A stretch of 64,000 nucleotides of DNA from Bacteroidota bacterium (GTDB lineage: Bacteria > Bacteroidota > Bacteroidia > Bacteroidales > GCA-2711565), in NCBI GenBank assembly GCA_018816945.1, contig JAHIVC010000099.1:64554-128553 (forward strand), read 5' to 3'. A program made the position numbers and the translations under genes. Below, piece by piece: positions 22,251-34,615 of this stretch (position 1 is the stretch's first letter; each line of letters opens with the position of its first letter). The notes under the pieces were generated by a model. That model was not told the origin of the DNA and searched no databases. It was given only the letters and a program-made list of their open reading frames with translations.

Positions 22251-24575
22251 TCAATTAATGAACAAAATTTTTGTGATCATGGTCGACGAACCATCACGAT
22301 TGCTAACAAAAACCAGGTAAACGCCTGTTTTAGGTTTTTGTCCGTTTAATGTTTTTCCATCCCAAATTGCCTGTCCACCCAATGATCGGGTTTCAAAAAC
22401 CAAATCACCACTGATATCAGTAATTTTAACGATGGCTTCGTAAGGAACATTCTTAATGGTAATCGGACCCGAATAATCTTCCCTTACCGGATTTGGAAAG
22501 GCATAAATTTCTTCTTTTATGTTTGAAGCATCCGAAGCATCTGATCGATAGGAAATAATCCCATTGCTTGTCCCGAAAAACACTTCTCCTTCCTTATTAA
22601 TGGCGATCGATAGAATGTTGTTCGAAAGCAGTGGTGAATTTTCGGCCATGAAATGAAAAATCTGTTCTTTGCCATCTTCCGAAAATAAAAATACCCCTGA
22701 GTTTTCAGTTCCTACCCATTTTCGATTTGCACCATCTACCGCAATACTCGTGATCCGTTCAGTTTCGAGCAGATACTGAGTTCTGTTATCCCATTCAACA
22801 GTGATCCGTTGTACATCAAAACTACCTCCTCCAAAAACATTTTCCGGAGCGTAAATCAATCCGATACCTTCATTGGTTCCAAGCCAGATTTCTCCATTTA
22901 AATCCTCGGCCATGCAAACAATTTCTGAAGCGAAAATATTTCCGTTTCCCGGATTCGAGGTCAATACTTTTTTCTTATCATCCGATAAATCGCTGATTGA
23001 ATTGTTATCATTAAAAACCAGCAATGAATGGGCGTTTCGTAAGATGATCCACTTTTGATTGTAGGAATCGATCAACATGGTTCCGATATCGACCCCGCTG
23101 TAAGACGATCCCATATTAAACGAAAACCAGTTTCCGTCGATGGTTTGTACTGATAGAATGTCATTGGCACCTGAATTGGCAATCCATAGATTCCCGGCTT
23201 CATCAAATGCAAGATCACTTACCAATATTCTTGAAGGATCAGCATTCCAGGTTCCTAAACTAGAATTTTCGGTGTTATAAATTTCAGTTAAACTTCCATC
23301 ATTAAACTCAAGCAAACCGGTTTGCCAGGTGCCTGCAAAAACCTGTTTATGATTAAAAGGGTTAACAGCCAGGCTCAGCATATCTTGTACGTTTTCAAGT
23401 TCAGCAGATGTGCAATTTTCAGATAAACAATTGATGGAATTCCAGCTTTCATTGATGAACGAATAAATTCCTTCGCGTTTGAATAAGGGTGCCCATACCG
23501 AACTTCTTCCACCTGAAGCAACCCATAAATCATTACCGGCGGTTTTCATCGAAAAGACATCAATAAAGTCAGGGCCATTTAAACTAATGAATTCTCCTTG
23601 CCAACCATCACTTGAGGTTTTAACAAGGCCCTTTTTACTATCGGCAATCCAAATTTGATTTTCACTATCTATCAAAGCACTTTTTGGGAAAATACTCTTT
23701 TGGTTGGGCGACCAGATTTTGGTTTCCAATCCGAATTGTTGATTATAAACCAATACATCCATATTCCGGCAGAATAGCAATTTATTATCTTCAGCTACAA
23801 TATCAATAATATCCGATTGATCAGCATGGGAAAATAGCTGCCACCCTAATCCATTCTGAATGTAAAGGACATCATCATTATATCCGGCATTGTATTTATT
23901 AACAATTATTTTCCCACCAAAAAACTCCACTAAATTGAAAGGTGAAGCAAAATCAGGAATGGTTGTTATCCTTTGCCAGAATGCAAAATCAGCTAGATTA
24001 GGAGCATTAATTGAAGCTGTGTAAATCCCATTTTCTGTGGCAGCATAAAAATTTGTTTCATTTGCAGAAAGATCAAAAATATTCAGATAGCTACCATTTA
24101 GCCCTATGTAATAAGTGTCTTTGATTTCTTCTCTGATAAAATCCAAAACAACAATTCCAAACCCACAAGAAAGGTATGCCAGATTATTACGAATAAATAT
24201 ATTGTGGATGGTTTTATTCCCCAGAATCTGCTTCCGTTTGATATCAGAAATATTGATGATTTGGTTGTTCTTGACTAAATCAACATTAGAATTTGTGTAA
24301 GCTATGATCAAAATACCTGAATTTTTATCATAGCTAATTTTACTAATTCCAACATCCGATAACCCATTTACTTTTGAAAGTTTTTCGATGCTGTTATCCG
24401 TTTTTTCATAATAAAACAAACTATAGGGTGTGGCACAATAAATTTTCGATCCGGCCTCAGCAACAGAAATACCACTTTTATAGGGTAAATGATCGCGCCA
24501 CTGACCAATTCCTATCTGAGAAAAGACCGGGCTAATTAATAAAAAAAGAATGGTTATGAGAATGTATTTCTTCAA
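22251..24575 (-). CDS. Double beta-propeller (two-component-regulator-propeller type) protein with a T9SS C-terminal sorting domain; PorZ-like
   Basis: 774 aa with a signal peptide and many propeller-blade repeats (W-rich, G-L/I-x-x-F/Y). The C-terminal ~80 aa ends ...GVYLVFVSNRDGSSTMITKILFIN, resembling a T9SS CTD. Size and architecture resemble PorZ. The propeller-plus-CTD call is firmer than the PorZ call. Confidence 0.5.
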   Translation of the reverse strand: MKKYILITILFLLISPVFSQIGIGQWRDHLPYKSGISVAEAGSKIYCATPYSLFYYEKTDNSIEKLSKVNGLSDVGISKISYDKNSGILIIAYTNSNVDLVKNNQIINISDIKRKQILGNKTIHNIFIRNNLAYLSCGFGIVVLDFIREEIKDTYYIGLNGSYLNIFDLSANETNFYAATENGIYTASINAPNLADFAFWQRITTIPDFASPFNLVEFFGGKIIVNKYNAGYNDDVLYIQNGLGWQLFSHADQSDIIDIVAEDNKLLFCRNMDVLVYNQQFGLETKIWSPNQKSIFPKSALIDSENQIWIADSKKGLVKTSSDGWQGEFISLNGPDFIDVFSMKTAGNDLWVASGGRSSVWAPLFKREGIYSFINESWNSINCLSENCTSAELENVQDMLSLAVNPFNHKQVFAGTWQTGLLEFNDGSLTEIYNTENSSLGTWNADPSRILVSDLAFDEAGNLWIANSGANDILSVQTIDGNWFSFNMGSSYSGVDIGTMLIDSYNQKWIILRNAHSLLVFNDNNSISDLSDDKKKVLTSNPGNGNIFASEIVCMAEDLNGEIWLGTNEGIGLIYAPENVFGGGSFDVQRITVEWDNRTQYLLETERITSIAVDGANRKWVGTENSGVFLFSEDGKEQIFHFMAENSPLLSNNILSIAINKEGEVFFGTSNGIISYRSDASDASNIKEEIYAFPNPVREDYSGPITIKNVPYEAIVKITDISGDLVFETRSLGGQAIWDGKTLNGQKPKTGVYLVFVSNRDGSSTMITKILFIN

Positions 24576-24687: not shown

Positions 24688-25485
24688 TTATGATGAATAA
24701 ATATGCAGACTGTTTTGAGCAGCCGGTAAATAATTAATTCCAAACCAGCATACCAATAAAATAATAAAAGCGAAGGTAAGAATCCAAAGTGCCTGCGTCG
24801 TATTGGTTTTTTTCTTTATTCGAAGATGAATATAGATAAGATAAACCAACCAGGTTAATAAGGCCCAAGTTTCCTTAGGATCCCAGGTCCAATAATGTCC
24901 CCAGGCTTCTTTTGCCCATAATGCACCAAACAATAATCCAAATGTTAAAAAAGCAAAACCCAGATAAACCGAATTATCTGCTAATTTTAAGGTTGGATCA
25001 AAATCCATATTTTTCTTCATCAGAACTAAGCCCTTTAATGCCGTTAATGACGAAACGGCCAAAAAGGCATAAGCAATTATGTACACCACAACGTGTGGAA
25101 TAAACCAAGGCGATTGAAGTGCCGGCATCAATGTTTTATCAAAAGTTTCGGGGTTCATAATGTTTATGAACATAAACAAAACAGCCAACGTAAGGGTATA
25201 TGCCAACATCCAGAATATTTTCCATCGATAATAAATGAAAATCCCTATTACCGATAAAAATATAGAATACCATAAACGGGTTTCGCCAAGGGTCCGAAAT
25301 GGCGGACGCTCCAAACTTATCCATAAATTAATGGTAAAACAGGCCAGACCACCAACTCCAAGTATGAGAAATACTGCAGCAAACCAACTGTATGTTTTTG
25401 ATTTTACGAATATTAAAAAGAGCAATCCCACAATCCATAATGCAGTTGTGAGGTAAGTATATAGCGGAAAACTTGTCCAGGTCAT
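24688..25485 (-). CDS. ccsA: Cytochrome c biogenesis protein CcsA (System II heme lyase subunit)
   Basis: 265 aa, polytopic, with the tryptophan-rich WWD-type motif WGHYWTWDPKETWALLTWL. Confidence 0.85.
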   Translation of the reverse strand: MTWTSFPLYTYLTTALWIVGLLFLIFVKSKTYSWFAAVFLILGVGGLACFTINLWISLERPPFRTLGETRLWYSIFLSVIGIFIYYRWKIFWMLAYTLTLAVLFMFINIMNPETFDKTLMPALQSPWFIPHVVVYIIAYAFLAVSSLTALKGLVLMKKNMDFDPTLKLADNSVYLGFAFLTFGLLFGALWAKEAWGHYWTWDPKETWALLTWLVYLIYIHLRIKKKTNTTQALWILTFAFIILLVCWFGINYLPAAQNSLHIYSS

Positions 25486-25488
25486 AAA

Positions 25489-26739
25489 TTAGTCTTTAAT
25501 AGTTTTTGATCTTCCGGTTAGTGCCAGGTAAAGTGATCCTGCCAATATCATAAAAATACTGGTATAAACTGCAGGCAACCATGGGTCCCGAATGAGCTGA
25601 ATGGCACTCATTTTTGACCATTTTCCCATTTTCTCGTCATATCCAACCTGATAAATTTTATACCCAAATACTTCAATAGGTTTGTTTACTATAATCTCAG
25701 CATCTTCGTATTTACTTACAGTTTTGAAAATCCTTAGTTTTGAGCTGAATTTTTTTGGGGCTTGAACTGTCATTGCCAAGGATAGGGTTTCATTTAACGG
25801 CATCAACTGCTTATCATACATGAAATTACCTGCAGAAATCCATCCTGTTTTTTCAACGCCGCTATTTACATTTACTGCCTTTATTTCAACTGCCGGAGTT
25901 GCACCCATAGTAGATGAGCTATCATATTGCCCATCTTTATATCTTGCTTCGGCAATAGATTGCTCTATTTCGAATTGCCAATCATTCCAATTAAACTTAT
26001 TACCGATATTTACATCAAACAGCTTTTCTCCTTTTTTTGTCACAATTTTTGAGGTTTCGTTATCAATAATTGCCAGTGAAGGTGGATATTCTTCAATATC
26101 GAATTCAAGTAATTTAATAGCAAAAGGAAGTTGCTGTGTTATTCCGTTTTTATCCTCTGCAAAATAAATGGCCCGATCTAACACCAGGTTCATATTAAAC
26201 ATCTTTATATCGGCAGATCCCAGCGAAGCAGATGCTATCAAAATCCATAATCCGGCATGATTTAAGAAAAAACCGATATTTTTAAGATTGAATTTATTCA
26301 GTCTTTTAAAAATTGCATGACCAAGAATTGCAAGTAAGTAAATAGCAGAAAACAGGTAAGGCCAGCTATTTTTCAAATGAGTCAATCCCCAGGTTTGTAT
26401 CCAACCTTCCTGCCTTTGTTGAGGAATAAATGCCATTAAAAGAACCAGGAACATCACAAAACTGATAGCTGTAACTGCTGCCGGAACACCAGACAGAAAA
26501 GAAGTAATTCTATTGTTAAGAATTTTACTGCTTATCCAAAAAATGACAATGAGCCCAATGGCTATAACCAAATTAATAGGCCATCCTGGAAGGGTAATCC
26601 TGTATTCGGATAGCACAAATTCAAGAACAAAACCCGCGATCAGCAAAGCAAGGTTTATTAGAATGCTTTCCTTGAATCCCCAAGGCTTTTCCCATATTTT
26701 TTTGTTGATCTTTTCAGCGTTATCTATATCTGTATGCAT
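25489..26739 (-). CDS. ResB/CcsB-like cytochrome c biogenesis protein (System II)
   Basis: 416 aa with several N-terminal TMs, a large soluble loop and a C-terminal TM. Its stop lies 3 nt upstream of ccsA, the classic ccsB-ccsA arrangement. Confidence 0.7.
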   Translation of the reverse strand: MHTDIDNAEKINKKIWEKPWGFKESILINLALLIAGFVLEFVLSEYRITLPGWPINLVIAIGLIVIFWISSKILNNRITSFLSGVPAAVTAISFVMFLVLLMAFIPQQRQEGWIQTWGLTHLKNSWPYLFSAIYLLAILGHAIFKRLNKFNLKNIGFFLNHAGLWILIASASLGSADIKMFNMNLVLDRAIYFAEDKNGITQQLPFAIKLLEFDIEEYPPSLAIIDNETSKIVTKKGEKLFDVNIGNKFNWNDWQFEIEQSIAEARYKDGQYDSSSTMGATPAVEIKAVNVNSGVEKTGWISAGNFMYDKQLMPLNETLSLAMTVQAPKKFSSKLRIFKTVSKYEDAEIIVNKPIEVFGYKIYQVGYDEKMGKWSKMSAIQLIRDPWLPAVYTSIFMILAGSLYLALTGRSKTIKD

Positions 26740-26980: not shown

Positions 26981-27012
26981 TCATATTAAAAATTACAGCT
27001 ATCTTAATTGTA

Positions 27013-27020
27013 TAATTTTG
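27013..27020 (+). promoter_or_regulatory. -7 box TAATTTTG upstream of the ImcH-like cytochrome gene
   Basis: Located 24 nt upstream of the ATG at 27044. It lies inside the 5' end of the track ORF that starts at the TTG at 27008. Confidence 0.4.
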
Positions 27021-27043
27021 TAAAACATACTAAAATTACTAAT

Positions 27044-28543
27044 ATGAAACTTCCAAAAACTGCCTATAACTGGACATCCTTAATTGGGGCGACCATATCA
27101 ATTATTTCATTATCGATGATCGTATTTCTATTTACGATATCAATCATGTTCGATAAAGGAGGTTCTTATCTTGGTATTTTTATTTACATGGTATTGCCCA
27201 TGTTTTTAATATTTGGATTAATTCTTATTCCAATTGGGATGTGGAAGCGGCACAGGGCGGAGTTAAAAAATGCTGATCTTAAAGAATTAAAATGGCTTAA
27301 AATAGATTTTAACGATCCAAAGCATAGAAATGCAATGTTGATTTTCATAGTTGGATCGGCCATATTTTTGTTTTTATCCTCCATTGGAAGTTATGAGGCC
27401 TTTCACTATTCCGAATCTGTAGAATTTTGTGGTACCGTTTGCCATGATGTGATGGAACCTGAATATGTTGCTTATCAAAACTCTCCACATGCAAGGGTTG
27501 CTTGTGTTGAATGTCACGTTGGTGAAGGTGCTGATTGGTATGTTCGTTCAAAATTATCAGGAATGTATCAGGTGTATTCAGTACTGTTTAAGAAGTATCC
27601 TACTCCAATTCCTACACCGGTTGAAAATTTACGTCCGGCCCGTGAAACATGCGAACGCTGTCATTGGCCCGAAAAATTTTATGCACAACAAAATCGCTTA
27701 GAAAAACATTATATTGCTGATGAACAAAATTCAGAATGGGACATCAGTTTGCAAATTAAAACAGGTCCCAATTACAGCGCTCTTGGATTGCAAGAAGGAA
27801 TTCACTGGCATATAAATCCTGATGTTACCATTGAGTATATTCCCGGTTCATCAAACAGAGAAGAAATCCCCTGGGTTAAATACACCAATAAAAAGACCGG
27901 CGAAACTTATATTTATGAAGACACTGAAAATCCATTAAGTGAAGAAGTAATTAATTCTTCGCAGATAAGAACGATGGATTGTATGGATTGCCATAATAGG
28001 CCTTCACATAATTATTTATCGCCGTCAAAGTTTGTTGACAATGCAATGATAGCAGGCCTAATGTCATCTTCTATCCCTGAGCTAAAAGTGACTGCCATGG
28101 GATTACTATCCATCGAATATCCAACCAAGGACAGTGCTTTAAACGCTATTGCATCTGGAATTAAAGGGTTTTATGAAAATTCTTATCCTGAATTTTTAGC
28201 AGAGAATAAAGGTTTAATCGATGATGCAATTACTGCATTGCAGGATGGATTTCAAAAAAACATATTCCCATTCATGAAAGTCAGATGGGATATATATCCT
28301 AACCATATTGGTCATATCGAAAGCAATGGGTGCTTCAGGTGTCATAATGATACCCATCAAACCAAGGAACAAAGGGCCATTTCTAAAGATTGTAATTTGT
28401 GTCATATTATCAATGCCCAAGGACCTCCTGCCAATTTGGAACGATCATTAACTTTTGATGCACTTGAATTTAAACATCCGGTGGATATTGGTGAGGAGTG
28501 GAAAGTTACAAATTGTGCCGAATGTCATTCAGCTTTATTTTAA
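27044..28543 (+). CDS. Inner-membrane heptaheme c-type cytochrome with a NapC/NirT-like module (ImcH-like architecture)
   Basis: Seven CxxCH motifs (CGTVCH, CVECH, CERCH, CMDCH, CFRCH, CNLCH, CAECH) and about 3 N-terminal TM helices. The NapC/NirT-like stretch is FCGTVCHDVMEPEYVAYQNSPHARVACVECH. I moved the start from the track's TTG at 27008 to the ATG at 27044, because a TAATTTTG -7 box sits at 27013-27020. Confidence 0.8.
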   Translation: MKLPKTAYNWTSLIGATISIISLSMIVFLFTISIMFDKGGSYLGIFIYMVLPMFLIFGLILIPIGMWKRHRAELKNADLKELKWLKIDFNDPKHRNAMLIFIVGSAIFLFLSSIGSYEAFHYSESVEFCGTVCHDVMEPEYVAYQNSPHARVACVECHVGEGADWYVRSKLSGMYQVYSVLFKKYPTPIPTPVENLRPARETCERCHWPEKFYAQQNRLEKHYIADEQNSEWDISLQIKTGPNYSALGLQEGIHWHINPDVTIEYIPGSSNREEIPWVKYTNKKTGETYIYEDTENPLSEEVINSSQIRTMDCMDCHNRPSHNYLSPSKFVDNAMIAGLMSSSIPELKVTAMGLLSIEYPTKDSALNAIASGIKGFYENSYPEFLAENKGLIDDAITALQDGFQKNIFPFMKVRWDIYPNHIGHIESNGCFRCHNDTHQTKEQRAISKDCNLCHIINAQGPPANLERSLTFDALEFKHPVDIGEEWKVTNCAECHSALF

Positions 28544-28651: not shown

Positions 28652-29143
28652 TTACTCGACTATAGTTGGGTGTGCAATTTTAGCAACATACTCTTTATAA
28701 TTAAAGCCTTTAAAATGTGGGCTTTCTGAATTATGGCATTTAAGGCATACCGCTTCTTTTGGCTCAATCATACCGTTTGCCAATGCTTTTGCCTTATCCT
28801 TCATAATAGCATTTGGGAAATATTTACTACCTGGTCCGTGACAAGATTCGCAAGATACACCTTCAGTAATTTTTAAACCAGCCACTAAATCTTTATCTAC
28901 ATGGCCAACCGTAGAATGGCATTTAATACACTTTGGATCTTTAGCTTCTGCAGCACTTAAAGATTCCATTGCTTTAGCATGTAATGATACTTGCCATTTA
29001 GCATACTGGGCTCCGGTTGCCGGTTTATTATGGCACATTTTACATTTATTTGCTCCTACATACTCAAAATCTTGAGCCATCAAGTTGCTGCTTCCCAGAA
29101 ACACAACTAATGAAATTAACATTAAAATTCTCATAATCATCAT
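28652..29143 (-). CDS. Secreted tetraheme c-type cytochrome (cytochrome c554-like small multiheme)
   Basis: 163 aa with a signal peptide (...SNLMAQDF) and four CxxCH motifs (CKMCH, CIKCH, CESCH, CLKCH). Confidence 0.8.
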   Translation of the reverse strand: MMIMRILMLISLVVFLGSSNLMAQDFEYVGANKCKMCHNKPATGAQYAKWQVSLHAKAMESLSAAEAKDPKCIKCHSTVGHVDKDLVAGLKITEGVSCESCHGPGSKYFPNAIMKDKAKALANGMIEPKEAVCLKCHNSESPHFKGFNYKEYVAKIAHPTIVE

Positions 29144-29411: not shown

Positions 29412-30026
29412 TCAATGTATTTCGTGATAGCCATTAATCATGCCCTTAAAATTACTAAGCGGTGTATGTCCGATGGTGCAAAAGTAGATATGGACAATTA
29501 AAAATAGTGAGACAATAAATCCCATTATAACGTGAATGATATGAGTTATATGTAATGCTTTGTTCCCAAAAAAATCAATAACCAAGAATTCGGGATATAG
29601 TATCATGATCCCTGTTAAAACCACAAGTGGGATAGTTACATACATCACAAAAATATAACTGAACTTTTGCAGTGGATTAAATTTATGCTCTTTAGTAATT
29701 GGAAATGGAGGATTTTCTCCTTTAAAAATACCAAAAGCATAATATCTGGCTTGCATAATCAAGTTCTTTACGATACCTTTTCTAAGAAAATACTGCCGAC
29801 CATTTGGTGTAAGGAAATTTCCCAGAAAAAAACAGATATAACTCAGTACCAGAATAATTCCGGCGATATTATGAATTGATACGGACCAATCAAATCGAAT
29901 CAGAGGAAGTGCCGGATCAGAATATTGCATGCTGATGCCGGTAAAGATCAACAATAAACAAAGGATTGCATTAAACCAATGCCAAAGCCTGATCCAAACG
30001 GGGTATAAATATATTTTTTCACTCAT
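29412..30026 (-). CDS. Membrane b-type cytochrome (FdnI/HydC/PhsC-like, Ni/Fe-hydrogenase cytochrome b family)
   Basis: 204 aa with 4 TM helices carrying conserved His residues (WIRLWHWFNAI, SIHNIAGI, HITHIIHVIMGF, LIVHIYF). Its start lies 5 nt after the stop of the upstream heptaheme gene. Confidence 0.75.
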   Translation of the reverse strand: MSEKIYLYPVWIRLWHWFNAILCLLLIFTGISMQYSDPALPLIRFDWSVSIHNIAGIILVLSYICFFLGNFLTPNGRQYFLRKGIVKNLIMQARYYAFGIFKGENPPFPITKEHKFNPLQKFSYIFVMYVTIPLVVLTGIMILYPEFLVIDFFGNKALHITHIIHVIMGFIVSLFLIVHIYFCTIGHTPLSNFKGMINGYHEIH

Positions 30027-30031
30027 GGCGC

Positions 30032-31006
30032 TTAATGTTTAATGATAATACGTAAGAAAGCATGAATACACAATCCCAGAAAAACTAAAACGAATAATCC
30101 AATACTGATAACATTCAGATAGTAATTTCTGTTAGCTCCAATTACATACGATTCTTCAAGCATTGCCTCATTTGAAAAACCGGTAATGCTTCGTTCGTTG
30201 GTAAACTGATATTTATAAAGAGAGGCAAGCAATCGCGATTCTTTCGAATGACACTCCACACAAAGCTTAATAGCCTCTTCTTTAGGCCGAACATTATGTG
30301 CAACTAAGGTGTTATCATTAATTTGAGTATGACATTCGATGCACCTAACTTTTTTAAAGTGAAGAACTTGGTTGGGCAACCAATTATGTGTTACTAAAAC
30401 ATTCGGGTTTTCCATCGTAGTCAACAACTGGTATTTAGAAATATCAGCATGGCAGGTCAAACAAATTTCATTATCGTATTGTATGAAATCAGCCATATTT
30501 TCGTTGGTACGTGCATTAATTTTATAACTATGCGGATTATGACACATCCAGCAGGTAAAGTCTTCGGAATGTTTTGAGGAGTGAACACTTTTGTGAAAAT
30601 CTTCTTCGATTTGCTCAAAATTGAACTTTGCATATTGTTCATCGCCGGCATGACAATCTAAACATGCAAATTTAGGCTCCATGCGCAATTGCCCTGAGTG
30701 GGGAAATTCTCCATAGTCGGCCGAATGACAATCCCTACAACTAAATTTCCAATGATTTGATTGGTAATATTCTACTGAATCCACGATAAAATATGGATTC
30801 ATTCTTTCTTTCACTTTTTTCCCCATCCAGTCGTTTTGATAGTAATAGTTTGCCTGTCCGTGACAACTGAAGCATAATTGATTGTCTTCGGCATACTCAG
30901 CTATTCTTTGAGTTTGATCAGTTTGTGCAAGTATATAATTAGGCTGAAATAAAAACAAAGAGAAGAAGATAAAAACACCTAAAATGCGATATAAATTTCT
31001 TTTCAT
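30032..31006 (-). CDS. Heptaheme c-type cytochrome with signal peptide and C-terminal membrane anchor
   Basis: 324 aa with seven CxxCH motifs (CFSCH, CRDCH, CLDCH, CWMCH, CLTCH, CIECH, CVECH) and a C-terminal TM (YYLNVISIGLFVLVFLGLCIHAFL). Confidence 0.8.
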   Translation of the reverse strand: MKRNLYRILGVFIFFSLFLFQPNYILAQTDQTQRIAEYAEDNQLCFSCHGQANYYYQNDWMGKKVKERMNPYFIVDSVEYYQSNHWKFSCRDCHSADYGEFPHSGQLRMEPKFACLDCHAGDEQYAKFNFEQIEEDFHKSVHSSKHSEDFTCWMCHNPHSYKINARTNENMADFIQYDNEICLTCHADISKYQLLTTMENPNVLVTHNWLPNQVLHFKKVRCIECHTQINDNTLVAHNVRPKEEAIKLCVECHSKESRLLASLYKYQFTNERSITGFSNEAMLEESYVIGANRNYYLNVISIGLFVLVFLGLCIHAFLRIIIKH

Positions 31007-31147
31007 CCTTTTATTGTTATAAAGGGTGCCATTATTGTGATGACACCCTTATAATTATTTAATCAAAAATAAGCAATAATTTAAATTGATTCGATGCTTT
31101 TCAACTTGAATTAATGAAGTCAGAAAACCAGTATTCATCTTACAAAT

Positions 31148-32017
31148 TTAGAAACCCCACAATCTTGTAATATTGAAACCTATAAACAAAGCTCCATCTT
31201 GCCAATCATTAATGTTGGTCATCATATTGTATTGTGGGCTAAGCGTATTGGCTGTTCCCATGAATATTTGGAAAGCGTGAGTTCCTGTTGCAAATTCAAC
31301 ACCAAAAGCTAAATTAGGTTTTGCTTTAAGATCCAAAACAGTATGTTCTTGAATTCCTTTGATATGCAAAGGAGCATCATAATTAAAAATGAAAGATCCT
31401 TGTGGGCTGAATTTTACCCTGCCACTAAAGGAAATCGCAATTTTATCATGTTCCTGTGTCGATTCAACCTTATTAATATGTGAGATACTTGGTGCAACCT
31501 GAAAAGAGAATGCATCGCAAAATTTTCGACCAATGATGATTTGGTTGAAAAATGAAAATCGATCTGTTCCACGTGAAGGTTGCCCGGCAGAAACAAATAC
31601 TTCCTTATTTCTACCATCAATACCAAAATTACTATAATAGGTTATGGCTAGCGGGCTTCCGCCTTCCCGGGCTTGTTTTAAAATACTCCATTTTAATCTA
31701 AAATCGGTCATTTTATTGTATTTTATGGCTCCAACACCGATCATGATATTATTGTTTATGCTATAATTCAATCCAAGTCTGATATTTGATGGTGCATAAA
31801 GACCATACAAATCGGTAATTCCGTTCTGGACGGTTCCAAAATTATGCTCAATAATCATTTCAAGTGTTCGGGCATCTGGAATTACTCCGGTTTGGGCATT
31901 GATTAAAATCCCACTTTCAAATGGTGATCTTACCGGTTTAACTTCAACTTTTTCTTCTTGTGCAAGGAGAACGCCAAAACACATCAAAAAAGCCAGTATT
32001 ATGCTATATTTTTTCAT
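31148..32017 (-). CDS. Predicted small outer-membrane beta-barrel protein (possibly DUF5777-like)
   Basis: 289 aa with a signal peptide (...GVLLAQEEK). It shows an alternating hydrophobic pattern throughout and a terminal aromatic residue (...GFNITRLWGF), typical of OM barrels. The family name is from memory and unverified. Confidence 0.6.
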   Translation of the reverse strand: MKKYSIILAFLMCFGVLLAQEEKVEVKPVRSPFESGILINAQTGVIPDARTLEMIIEHNFGTVQNGITDLYGLYAPSNIRLGLNYSINNNIMIGVGAIKYNKMTDFRLKWSILKQAREGGSPLAITYYSNFGIDGRNKEVFVSAGQPSRGTDRFSFFNQIIIGRKFCDAFSFQVAPSISHINKVESTQEHDKIAISFSGRVKFSPQGSFIFNYDAPLHIKGIQEHTVLDLKAKPNLAFGVEFATGTHAFQIFMGTANTLSPQYNMMTNINDWQDGALFIGFNITRLWGF

Positions 32018-32035
32018 CTTTTTCTGATTTATAAG

Positions 32036-32449
32036 TTAATTATTTTTAGCACCCTCTGTAATCCATTTCAGGACCAATGCACTTTGTGAATCTGTAAATT
32101 GCTTCCAGGCGTGCGTACCTGCTCCAGGCTTAACGTAAGTGTACAATTTGCTGGAAGCCGGATTAGCTGTATTTACAAGACCCTTGGAAATGATTTCGCT
32201 ATAGGCTTTTGCAGCAGTCAAATAAGGACGGGTTCCACCGTCTCCATGACAGGATGTACAACGATTACCTGTTGTAAAAATGGGTACAATCATCGTAGAA
32301 AAACTAGTTGCATCCGGATCAACAGGATCATCTGGATCTGGTTCCTCAATAGGGGGAGGAGTAGGGCGATATATAAAATCATATTCACAACCCGTAACAA
32401 CCATCATTCCAACGAAAACCAGTATTAGTATATATATTGATTTTTTCAT
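32036..32449 (-). CDS. Monoheme c-type cytochrome lipoprotein with an acidic Pro-rich linker (PSCyt-like heme motif)
   Basis: Start chosen at the ATG at 32449 (MKKSIYILILVFVGMMVVTGC lipobox). The track's TTG start at 32479 falls inside a terminator hairpin. The linker reads PTPPPIEEPDPDDPVDPD and there is a single CxxCH (IVPIFTTGNRCTSCHGDGG). Confidence 0.6.
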   Translation of the reverse strand: MKKSIYILILVFVGMMVVTGCEYDFIYRPTPPPIEEPDPDDPVDPDATSFSTMIVPIFTTGNRCTSCHGDGGTRPYLTAAKAYSEIISKGLVNTANPASSKLYTYVKPGAGTHAWKQFTDSQSALVLKWITEGAKNN

Positions 32450-32477: not shown

Positions 32478-32510
32478 AAAAAAAGGCACCTTAAATAACC
32501 GATGCCTTTT
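32478..32510 (-). terminator. Intrinsic terminator or attenuator inside the cytochrome operon, after the hexaheme gene
   Basis: The minus strand reads aaaggca-tcggttatttaagg-tgccttt followed by a T-run. It lies between the stop at 32533 and the next start at 32449. Confidence 0.65.
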
Positions 32511-32532
32511 TCTATATGGTTAATTACATAAC

Positions 32533-33609
32533 TTATTTAACTTTCGCAATCGTATTTTTCAGAATGCCAATTACATATTGTGGATTGTGAACTCCAAGGC
32601 TCTTGTCTTCAGTAGCTAATTGCCAGTTAATAAAAGCTGCTGCTAAGTTGGCTGGTTGCGAACCTGCAATTGCATAACCTGCATGGCCTTTTGAACCATC
32701 ATCATAGATACCTTTTGCAGTCAAGATAGCTTGTAACTCATCTAATAAAGTTTGAACTTCTAATTGTAAAGCTTTAACTTGTGCAGTCACTTCGGTGGTG
32801 CTAGTATGACAACTGGTACAACCTGCATAAGAAATCGCACCTGTTTCTTCATTAGTTACATTAAAAGTATGACCACCGGTAGAAGTGCCAGTAGCTGCAG
32901 CCATATGACAAGCAACACAACCGTCTTCCACATAATTTGCATGGGTGTTGATACCATAAGTTGCGGTTCCGCCCATTTTAATTAAACCTTCGCCTGCTAA
33001 TACGTTTGCCTGTGGACCATGATGGCCACCATAACGATAAGAAGTTAAAGTTACATTAGCTCCATCAACAACTGGCATTGGGCTAATTGGTCTAGATTGA
33101 TGACAGGTAGCACATAAATTACCTTTTCCAAAATCAACAGTGGCACCACCAACAAATAATTGAACATTTGCCGTTTGTGTTAAGCCTAAATCAGCAGGAG
33201 TGAATGTTTTGTGAATGTTATGACAAGTATAACAGTTAATTGGGTTGGGATTGTTGATAATTATACCATCATAAGTTCCGGCTAGGTTAGCAAGGAATCC
33301 TTGACTGGTATGACAAGTTGCACATGCACCGGTATTTCTTGCAAAAGCTTCACCAGTTGCATGAAGTGAATGTTCCCATTGGTTTACTTGTGCAAACATA
33401 CCCTGAGATTGACCCCCGTCGTGACATAGGATACAACCTGCTGTTCCGTCTATTCCGTCAACACCTGCTTCGCCTCTTGGTCCGGCTGGTCCTACTGCTC
33501 CATCAATTCCGTCTTTTCCTGCAGCACCTTCCTTGGTACAACTTGTAATCATTAACACAGAAAACAGAAATGCAACTGTTAAAAAAGTTAAAAATGTAAA
33601 TCTTTTCAT
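32533..33609 (-). CDS. Hexaheme c-type cytochrome lipoprotein with an N-terminal collagen-like Gly-X-Y repeat
   Basis: 358 aa with lipobox LMITSC. Eleven uninterrupted G-X-Y triplets follow (GAAGKDGIDGAVGPAGPRGEAGVDGIDGTAGCI). There are six CxxCH motifs (CILCH, CATCH, CYTCH, CATCH, CVACH, CTSCH). Confidence 0.8.
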   Translation of the reverse strand: MKRFTFLTFLTVAFLFSVLMITSCTKEGAAGKDGIDGAVGPAGPRGEAGVDGIDGTAGCILCHDGGQSQGMFAQVNQWEHSLHATGEAFARNTGACATCHTSQGFLANLAGTYDGIIINNPNPINCYTCHNIHKTFTPADLGLTQTANVQLFVGGATVDFGKGNLCATCHQSRPISPMPVVDGANVTLTSYRYGGHHGPQANVLAGEGLIKMGGTATYGINTHANYVEDGCVACHMAAATGTSTGGHTFNVTNEETGAISYAGCTSCHTSTTEVTAQVKALQLEVQTLLDELQAILTAKGIYDDGSKGHAGYAIAGSQPANLAAAFINWQLATEDKSLGVHNPQYVIGILKNTIAKVK

Positions 33610-33919: not shown

Positions 33920-34615
33920 ATGCCTACCTATATTAACAATGCATTATGCAAAGATTGTTCTAAAAGGCTTAACATTTTTCATTTTTTAACCGACGATGAA
34001 ATGGACTATATCAACGAGCATCGTCATGAGGTAAAATTCAATCCCGGCGAAACAATTTTCAAGCAAGGAGGAGCATTCACTCATGTTGCGTGTTTGACAT
34101 CAGGTTATGGAAAAGTTTATATAGAAGGCATCAATAAAAAGAATCTGGTTCTTAATATTTTACGACCTACAGAAATGATTGGTGGACCCGGATTGTTCAA
34201 CGATTTTCGTCATCATTATTCGGTTTCCGCAATTGATGATGTTGTTGCTTGTTTTATTGAAGTTGAGTCTTTTATGGAAGTTGCGAAACAAAACAAGGAG
34301 TTTGCTTCGGAACTATTCAAATGGATCAACCAAAAAGGGGTCCGTAATTTTGAAAAGCTGATTAATCTTACCCAAAAACAAATGCCCGGAAGAATAGCAG
34401 ATGCCTTACTCTATCTTTCAAACTCTGTTTACGAAAATGATAAATTTACGGTCAATATTTCACGTCAGGATATTGCAGATCTGGCAGCCATGTCGAAAGA
34501 AAGTGCCATCCGAATTATTAAAGAATTCAAAGAATCGGGCTTTATTACCTGTGAGGGGAACGATTTTAATATTCTCGATCCAAAGGCACTGCATAAAATT
34601 AGTCAGACCGGTTAA
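33920..34615 (+). CDS. Crp/Fnr-family transcriptional regulator
   Basis: 231 aa with a cNMP-binding-like beta-roll (FNPGETIFKQGG...) and a C-terminal HTH (SRQDIADLAAMSKESAIRIIKEFKESGFI). An N-terminal CxxC (CKDC) is present. The gene is divergent from the cytochrome operon. Confidence 0.85.
   Translation: MPTYINNALCKDCSKRLNIFHFLTDDEMDYINEHRHEVKFNPGETIFKQGGAFTHVACLTSGYGKVYIEGINKKNLVLNILRPTEMIGGPGLFNDFRHHYSVSAIDDVVACFIEVESFMEVAKQNKEFASELFKWINQKGVRNFEKLINLTQKQMPGRIADALLYLSNSVYENDKFTVNISRQDIADLAAMSKESAIRIIKEFKESGFITCEGNDFNILDPKALHKISQTG

Follow-up and report, generated by a model that had tools for sequence, protein, structure and literature searches.

The window analyzed here is a 64,000-nucleotide (nt) stretch of contig JAHIVC010000099.1 from a member of the Bacteroidales. 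It contains two adjacent minus-strand genes, one encoding a monoheme c-type cytochrome lipoprotein and the other a small outer-membrane barrel of the DUF5777 family. We propose that this pair is the core of a conserved Bacteroidota outer-membrane redox module and that it forms here the last segment of an anaerobic respiratory chain, with the acceptor being reduced at the barrel. We hold this reading tentatively, as a serious possibility short of a probable one. The genes for a quinol-oxidizing module, two lipoprotein cytochromes targeted to the outer membrane, and one small barrel have been inherited together, under a regulator of the Crp/Fnr type, and the locus is a candidate for an undescribed route of respiratory electrons to the outer cell surface.

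The lipoprotein gene (positions 32036..32449, minus strand; 137 amino acids [aa], start MKKSIY) was delimited by its open reading frame (ORF), lipobox, CTSCH motif, and homologs. It lies 18 nt upstream of the barrel gene (31148..32017, minus strand; 289 aa), which was assigned by its match to Pfam PF19089 and by an AlphaFold2 (AF2) model. The gap is in frame, and a stop codon separates the two ORFs. Independent public gene calls yielded identical products of 137 and 289 aa, in agreement with the layout given in the preliminary description of the locus. A longer, TTG-initiated reading of the lipoprotein gene, extending to position 32479, exists; homologs and public gene calls support the 137-aa form.

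Conservation of the pair was analyzed in two samples. The barrel alignment was used as a query in a scan of one genome per species, and the best 80 of at least 572 confirmed matches were retained (close loci). A scan of metagenome contigs with 17 distant DUF5777 representatives as queries provided the best 80 of at least 598 confirmed matches; counts for this distant clade refer to the 45 loci in which the contig extends 1.5 kb or more beyond the barrel on its upstream side. The co-occurrence figures describe these two 80-locus samples and not the whole family, which comprises 1,840 clusters at 50% identity (E ≤ 1e-3). The close loci belong nearly all to the Bacteroidales (Prolixibacteraceae, Lentimicrobiaceae, Draconibacterium, Mariniphaga, Tangfeifania, Maribellus). 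Their barrels are 46-97% identical to that of the window, the closest among the best 80 being that of 'Bacteroidetes bacterium HGW-Bacteroidetes-17' (97%).

A homolog of the lipoprotein is encoded directly upstream of the barrel and on the same strand in 79/80 close loci; the intergenic distance has a median of 18 nt and lies between -60 and +35 nt in 77 of the 79. This adjacency is far beyond chance, showing that the two are obligate genetic partners. In the distant clade, the barrel has a cytochrome or a Rieske protein beside it in 43/45 loci (related cytochromes in 39, a Rieske lipoprotein exported by twin-arginine translocation [TAT] in 5). From gene neighborhoods, therefore, DUF5777 barrels appear to depend on a one-electron partner for their function. 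The preliminary description had named, as a finding that would speak against its reading, a generic porin that most genomes carry without cytochromes; because a redox partner adjoins the barrel in 79/80 close and 43/45 distant loci, this identity is ruled out.

The barrel protein matched the Pfam DUF5777 hidden Markov model (HMM; PF19089) with an E-value of 3.9e-73 and 246.2 bits (cut-off 23.1), covering profile positions 1-247 of 247. Together with the membrane beta-barrel fold, this full-length match places it in DUF5777. No NCBIfam model matched the barrel, and no mention of DUF5777 was found in the literature searched. The sequence begins with a signal peptide (...VLLA|QEE) cleaved after LLA, giving Gln20 as the mature N-terminus, and it ends in ...RLWGF, with Phe as the last residue. 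The AF2 model, built with 45 homologs (pLDDT 87.9, pTM 0.82), has 12 strands that alternate hydrophobic and polar residues, as in membrane barrels, and approximately 30 conserved non-strand residues precede strand 1. The barrel identity of the 289-aa protein, which had been predicted from its sequence, was thus upheld, as was the judgment that its size is insufficient for an MtrB/PioB-type sheath (12 versus 26 strands).

When the model was compared with the Protein Data Bank (PDB) using Foldseek, the matches listed were only generic small outer-membrane barrels of 12-14 strands (NanC, FapF, COG4313, OmpG), with TM-scores of ~0.45-0.68 and 7-12% identity. No cytochrome-porin or other redox-associated protein was among them. 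The window barrel resembles NanC, FapF, COG4313 (Pput2725), and OmpG in strand number and size, but none of these is associated with redox proteins. A Rosetta-stone search of the best 150 of the 1,840 DUF5777 representatives revealed no cytochrome-barrel fusion; long members have N-terminal extensions without CxxCH or are tandem double barrels. Such double barrels in a single polypeptide were seen, for example, in P0163 (615 aa) and at locus L152 (2741-4507).

Across 160 diverse barrels, H58, H180, and H247 are conserved in at least 96% of sequences; K109, Q115, R164, K165, N182, R200, R285, and several aromatic residues are conserved as well. The conserved polar and basic residues occupy lumen-parity positions. 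By strand parity, which is a matter of alternation and not of coordinates, the three histidines fall on the hydrophobic face near strand ends and not clearly in the lumen. Residue 1 of the mature barrel (Gln20, window 31960 region) is Gln in 98% of the 160 members. The N-terminal pyroglutamate habit of secreted Bacteroidota proteins may explain this Gln, which would then not be specific to the family.

The lipoprotein carries the lipobox VVTG|C21, followed by CEYDFIYRP, an acidic, Pro-rich linker (PTPPPIEEPDPDDPVDPD, also given as TPPPIEEPDPDDPVDPD), a single CTSCH at residues 64-68, and the C-terminal sequence WITEGAKNN. The one CxxCH, the linker, and the CEYDF start that had been noted from the sequence are all present. 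In 77 homologs with intact N-termini, the mature protein begins with C(100%)-x-Y(100%)-[D/E](87%)-[F/W/Y](90%)-[I/V](92%)-x-P(73%), and the linker after this motif has 12-23 residues, 24% of which are Pro and 24% acidic. The C-x-Y-D start is also present in short cytochromes of the distant clade. Conservation of this kind right after the lipidated Cys is uncommon and points to a specific contact.

The heme motif is CxxCH in 60 of the 77 homologs and CX4CH in 17. Members of the window protein's subclade have no conserved Met, and nearly all of them have His113 (GTHAWK). In the CX4CH subclade, Met occupies the aligned position (GSMK), and 43/50 short cytochromes of the distant clade have a Met-Pro motif at a comparable distance past the heme site. 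This alternation of His and Met at one aligned position marks it as the predicted distal axial ligand, and the heme of the window lipoprotein is therefore probably ligated by His68 and His113. The CX4CH subclade (e.g., SCNMSGCH) is found at 17 loci (L014, L015, L017, L023, L027, L034, and 11 others). Nine of them have the gene for a hexaheme lipoprotein (see below) after the cytochrome b gene instead of upstream of the pair.

The preliminary description had recognized a PSCyt-like heme context in the lipoprotein. Direct searches did not support it: neither the lipoprotein nor 24 close homologs matched Pfam PSCyt1 (PF07635, 'Planctomycete cytochrome C') at E-values up to 10. Searches against Pfam and NCBIfam gave only sub-threshold matches to class I cytochromes and a weak match to the LIC11213 lipoprotein, and a sequence search of the PDB gave nothing meaningful. 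Transitive homology did support it. An HMM of the lipoprotein family matched three-domain relatives at ~1e-27, and PF07635 is matched by these relatives at 4e-19. The reciprocal HMM, in turn, matched the window lipoprotein at 2.3e-13. The shared pattern is F..[IV].P[IL]F...C..CH ... L..WI..GA. Among the lipoprotein homologs, a PxL-like motif lies 6 residues after CH in 55/67. The window protein differs from PSCyt1 in being below Pfam detection, in being a stand-alone lipoprotein, and in having, in its subclade, His in place of the Met ligand.

The pair is not the self-contained two-gene unit that had been envisaged. In the Bacteroidales, it is embedded in a fixed gene order: hexaheme lipoprotein, monoheme lipoprotein, barrel, heptaheme cytochrome, and cytochrome b (80 close loci), with DUF5777 as the sole outer-membrane barrel in the cluster of the window. 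The hexaheme gene (32533..33609, minus strand; 358 aa, six CxxCH, lipobox Cys) is present in 74/80 close loci, usually directly upstream of the pair. Its product matched the Pfam models Mtrc-MtrF_II-IV_dom (PF22113; 36 bits, cut-off 30), Cytochrom_C552 (C-terminal part), and Collagen. The MtrC-domain match is generic, because two other multiheme proteins of the window match PF22113 too; the C-terminal helices resemble those of NrfA and octaheme reductases. Between the lipidated Cys and the first heme, there are approximately 10 collagen-like G-X-Y triplets, and the homologs of the 74 loci have 5-12, except for two truncated fragments. A stalk of collagen type is in itself an uncommon feature for a multiheme cytochrome.

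Downstream of the barrel, the heptaheme c-type cytochrome gene (30032..31006, minus strand; 324 aa, with a signal peptide) is present in 76/80 close loci. It was classified as CbcA-like by its CxxCH count and its C-terminal transmembrane (TM) helix with a His; seven CxxCH were counted in 74/76 homologs and the His in that helix in 70/72. The CbcB-like diheme cytochrome b gene (29412..30026, minus strand; 204 aa, four TM segments) is present in 72/80 close loci and follows the heptaheme gene with a median gap of 2.5 nt. Its product matched Ni_hydr_CYTB (PF01292, E = 3.9e-25) and the NCBIfam thiosulfate reductase cytochrome b model NF011582 (E = 2.2e-55; 188 bits, just below the cut-off of 204), and His16, His52, His165, and His179 are conserved at 99% or more. 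Divergent from the operon, a gene for a Crp/Fnr-family regulator (33920..34615, plus strand; Pfam cNMP_binding and HTH_Crp_2) adjoins it in 58/80 close loci.

The heptaheme cytochrome and cytochrome b match the published description of CbcBA, the inner-membrane menaquinol oxidoreductase that Geobacter sulfurreducens needs for extracellular respiration near -0.2 V (bioRxiv 10.1101/2021.04.15.440034). In both systems, a seven-heme cytochrome with a C-terminal, His-containing membrane helix is followed by a four-helix, thiosulfate-reductase-like diheme cytochrome b. Homologous cbcBA clusters have been reported in Bacteroidetes (Prolixibacter, Marinilabiliales, Labilibaculum), and cbcBA was proposed as a possible marker of extracellular electron transfer or metal respiration (bioRxiv 10.1101/2021.04.15.440034). 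No outer-membrane partner for the Bacteroidetes clusters was described in the literature searched. The Geobacter operon lacks genes for outer-membrane proteins and includes a sigma-54 regulator, whereas here the genes are joined to the barrel-lipoprotein module beside a Crp/Fnr regulator. This context favors electron export, that is, reduction, over Fe(II) oxidation.

In roughly 55% of the loci, an additional gene for a soluble class I (His/Met) cytochrome c of ~140 aa (CKSCH…MPNF) is inserted between the barrel and heptaheme genes (L004, 3828-4253, and about 45 others), indicating periplasmic electron traffic to the module. In the window, the spacer at this point has 141 nt only (31007-31147) and harbors no soluble cytochrome c.

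From these data, we derived the following model. The CbcBA-type inner-membrane complex, consisting of the diheme cytochrome b and the membrane-anchored heptaheme cytochrome, would oxidize menaquinol. Electrons would then pass to the hexaheme lipoprotein, which the collagen-like stalk may project from the outer membrane into the periplasm; ten G-X-Y triplets would span ~9 nm if a triple helix forms. The next carrier would be the PSCyt1-type monoheme lipoprotein, a linker-tethered one-electron carrier presumably docked at the barrel. In the last step, the single heme at the periplasmic mouth of the barrel would pass electrons to a small acceptor, soluble or chelated, that has entered the barrel or bound within it. 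We assume a Cyc2-type geometry in the reductive direction for this step, because a 12-strand barrel cannot enclose a multiheme wire. Hemes on opposite sides of a barrel ~2.5-3 nm tall are too far apart for fast tunneling. The model draws on the pairing in 79/80 loci, the fixed operon with a sole barrel, the CbcBA features, the His/Met position, the Crp/Fnr regulator in 58/80 loci, the soluble cytochrome c of ~55% of the loci, the one-electron partners in 43/45 distant loci, and the 12 strands with their conserved N-terminal segment and polar or basic residues of lumen parity.

Several points weigh against this model. Bacterial collagen-like proteins are usually found on the cell surface, and the stalk, together with the partial export-signal match of both lipoproteins, favors a surface location instead. 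The N-terminal segment of the barrel may fill its lumen, in which case there would be no pore. The AF2 prediction of the lipoprotein alone was unreliable (pLDDT 45.8), and docking, sidedness, the direction of flow, and the acceptor are proposed from the genes. The CbcBA assignment covers the published features of the Geobacter proteins (GSU0593/GSU0594), every one of which is reproduced. Moreover, the original task of the pair may not have been respiration, as suggested by the distant clade (see below).

The possible surface location leads to the best-surviving alternative, a trans-outer-membrane conduit of a new type. The hexaheme and possibly the monoheme lipoprotein would be exported to the surface like MtrC/OmcA, and electrons would cross at the barrel, either through a cofactor (heme b or a metal) held by the three invariant histidines or along the acidic linker, threaded as RcsF is through OmpA/C/F. 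We consider such a conduit unlikely, although the conservation of H58, H180, and H247 in at least 96% of 160 barrels and the invariant C-x-Y-[DE]-aromatic-[IV] motif with its conserved linker of 12-23 residues are consistent with it. The collagen-like stalk and the starts of the two mature lipoproteins would also fit surface display, and the hexaheme protein scores above the Pfam cut-off for the MtrC/MtrF domain model. However, the conserved histidines are the sole pointer to a cofactor, and strand parity puts them on the hydrophobic face near strand ends. The tunneling distance across the barrel is too long for one heme per side, and the MtrC-domain match is generic. The match to export signals is incomplete. 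Published Bacteroidota signals right after the lipidated Cys are C-X-K-(D/E)2-X, SDDDD, and SDDFE (PMC5080379). The hexaheme protein starts with C-T-K-E-G (family start C-[T/V]-K-E-G-P) and the monoheme protein with C-E-Y-D-F-I; each contains part of a signal, without the two adjacent acidic residues. Thus, of the earlier proposal that CEYDF points to surface export, the partial resemblance stands, while the export it implied is not established.

The preliminary description had compared the pair with Cyc2, a family in which a 16-strand barrel is fused to a cytochrome with a PxFAR[Q/K][T/Y] motif upstream of a single CXXCH (PMC8406198). The likeness lies in one c-type heme combined with a barrel too small for a multiheme wire, so that the substrate must reach the pore. 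This idea of a small barrel plus one heme survives, but a relationship to Cyc2 is not supported. Cyc2 is a single polypeptide (at least 365 aa), whereas two genes are present here, and it has 16 strands, versus 12 in the confident model of the window barrel. The diagnostic motif was found in 0/77 lipoprotein homologs (local window sequence, VPIFTTGNRCTSCH). A PxL-like motif does follow the heme site here, at 6 residues after CH, versus 4 residues after CXXCH in Cyc2. The window pair further differs by its lipid anchor and linker, by a heme that is probably His/His-ligated, and by an operon that suggests electron export. Membership in the Cyc2 family was rejected on fusion, strand number, and diagnostic motif.

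A split, Cyc2-like system for Fe(II) oxidation or electron uptake, in which Fe(II) would enter the barrel, the single heme would oxidize it, and electrons would flow inward, is accordingly given little credence. Its overall geometry is the one proposed for Cyc2 (PMC8406198), the PxL motif past the heme site would fit, and the His/Met class I cytochrome c of ~55% of the loci could feed an oxidase. Apart from the structural differences and the absence of fusions in the best 150 representatives, the predicted His/His ligation in the window subclade suggests a low potential, and passing electrons from Fe(II) through the CbcBA-like partner into the menaquinone pool would be uphill. The operon, which encodes no oxidase, is found in Bacteroidales that ferment or live anaerobically. 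Together with the adjacent Crp/Fnr regulator, the ligands and the CbcBA-like partner disfavor the Fe(II)-oxidizing direction that had been suggested from the sequence.

The distant clade, whose hosts are soil and freshwater Bacteroidota, provides a different setting. Its loci carry a three-domain PSCyt1 lipoprotein and a tRNA_anti-like OB-fold protein, often with an ECF sigma/anti-sigma pair (e.g., L125, 3443-7028), and 39/45 encode a YceI-like lipocalin (PF04264). No multiheme cytochromes and no quinol oxidase were found in the distant loci; conversely, no YceI, OB-fold, or ECF genes were found in the window or the 80 close loci. The layout is parallel in both clades: a multicenter lipoprotein cytochrome, a short C-x-Y-D cytochrome, and the barrel. 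At L087, L095, L106, L126, and L135, a TAT-exported Rieske [2Fe-2S] protein, a nonorthologous one-electron carrier, replaces the cytochrome. The Rieske protein of L106, which was inspected in detail, is a lipoprotein with a Pro-rich linker and without the C-x-Y-D motif. Because the distant clade lacks a quinol oxidase and has YceI-like lipocalins, the ancestral role of the module may not be respiration.

Redox maintenance of the envelope would be such a role. Through the barrel, the tethered cytochrome would reach a lipophilic redox compound of the outer membrane, for instance an isoprenoid quinone or a lipid radical, in analogy to the YceI-family lipocalin BcnA and the cytochrome b561 LcoA, which act against membrane lipid peroxidation (PMC9113575). 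Besides this recorded YceI-b561 system, the lipocalins in 39/45 distant loci and the ECF sigma/anti-sigma genes argue for it, and the Foldseek matches include channels for hydrophobic molecules (COG4313, FadL/TodX), with low TM-scores. For the window, we regard it as improbable: these genes are missing from the window and the close loci, and multiheme cytochromes plus a quinol oxidoreductase under Crp/Fnr are a respiratory signature.

A barrel outside the electron path, acting as a Slam-like insertion, export, or anchoring device that recognizes the C-x-Y-D-F-I-x-P start of lipoproteins, would agree with its constant position beside lipoproteins and with the motif (Y+3 in 77/77; D/E, aromatic, and I/V in 87-92%; C-x-Y-D start kept in distant short cytochromes), but it is very unlikely, since the inspected Rieske lipoprotein of L106 lacks the motif, Bacteroidota already have a general surface-export route (PMC5080379), and the neighbor is always a redox protein, whereas a translocon would be expected to take other cargo too.

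Our preferred reading, reduction of an acceptor at the barrel, implies a module that works most like a porin-cytochrome system, yet belongs to no known one. As in MtrCAB, PioAB, MtoAB, and the Geobacter OmbB-OmaB-OmcB system, a barrel is co-encoded with c-type cytochromes, including a multiheme lipoprotein, and there is a link to a quinol-oxidizing inner-membrane cytochrome. These systems differ in having barrels of 20-26 strands around a cytochrome with 8-10 hemes, whereas DUF5777 has 12 strands, an unrelated sequence, and a one-heme protein as its constant partner. An MtrB-type sheath, and with it membership in MtrAB, was rejected on strand number (12 versus ~26) and because no multiheme protein is enclosed. 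The 'giant PCC' of Lentimicrobium (PMC13013709) is a different cluster from the window operon.

To our knowledge, extracellular electron transfer has been described almost wholly from Proteobacteria and Desulfuromonadota, in which large barrels sheathe multiheme wires or Cyc2 is used. Members of the Bacteroidales abound in sediments, digesters, and anode biofilms. The locus supplies a specific outer-membrane candidate for the cbcBA genes of Bacteroidota, namely, a barrel family that is uncharacterized, has an obligate cytochrome partner, and belongs to a fixed operon; it would also offer a first hint at the function of DUF5777 and of PSCyt1-type cytochromes that stand alone. Because the operon occurs in the cultured strains Draconibacterium orientale DSM 25947, Tangfeifania diversioriginum DSM 27063, and Maribellus maritimus 5E3, the question is directly testable. 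A more general idea, which we judge quite unlikely, is that DUF5777 barrels form a new class of outer-membrane redox devices present throughout Bacteroidota, in which a cofactor held in the barrel with its three invariant histidines, or a threaded linker, combined with lipid-tethered single-heme carriers, would allow crossing without a multiheme wire. If so, anaerobic Bacteroidales would use the device together with CbcBA in extracellular respiration, and aerobic soil lineages would use it with YceI lipocalins for another redox task.

Between the hexaheme and monoheme genes of the window, a terminator-like hairpin with a 12-bp stem followed by a U run was predicted on the minus strand (32479..32512; -18.9 kcal/mol, z = -3.0 versus shuffled sequences, this window). 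This hairpin may act as an attenuator and set the relative amounts of the products. Another one (z = -2.3) is predicted in the 141-nt gap upstream of the heptaheme gene. Consensus scans for sigma-70 promoters and terminators showed no excess of sites over shuffled sequence.

Further cytochrome genes surround the operon. An NrfH/NapC-like membrane cytochrome (27008-28543, plus strand; 511 aa, six CxxCH) is encoded near it in 36/80 loci, and a c554-like tetraheme cytochrome (28652-29143, minus strand) in 10/80. System II cytochrome c maturation genes (24688..26739, minus strand; ResB-like and CcsB, by Pfam ResB and Cytochrom_C_asm and NCBIfam ccsB) are linked to the operon in only 6/80 loci. In the window, the operon, the accessory cytochromes, and the maturation genes form a cytochrome island of ~9 kb. 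Beside the maturation genes, a 774-aa secreted protein is encoded (22251-24575, minus strand), which looks like a beta-propeller with a C-terminal sorting domain.

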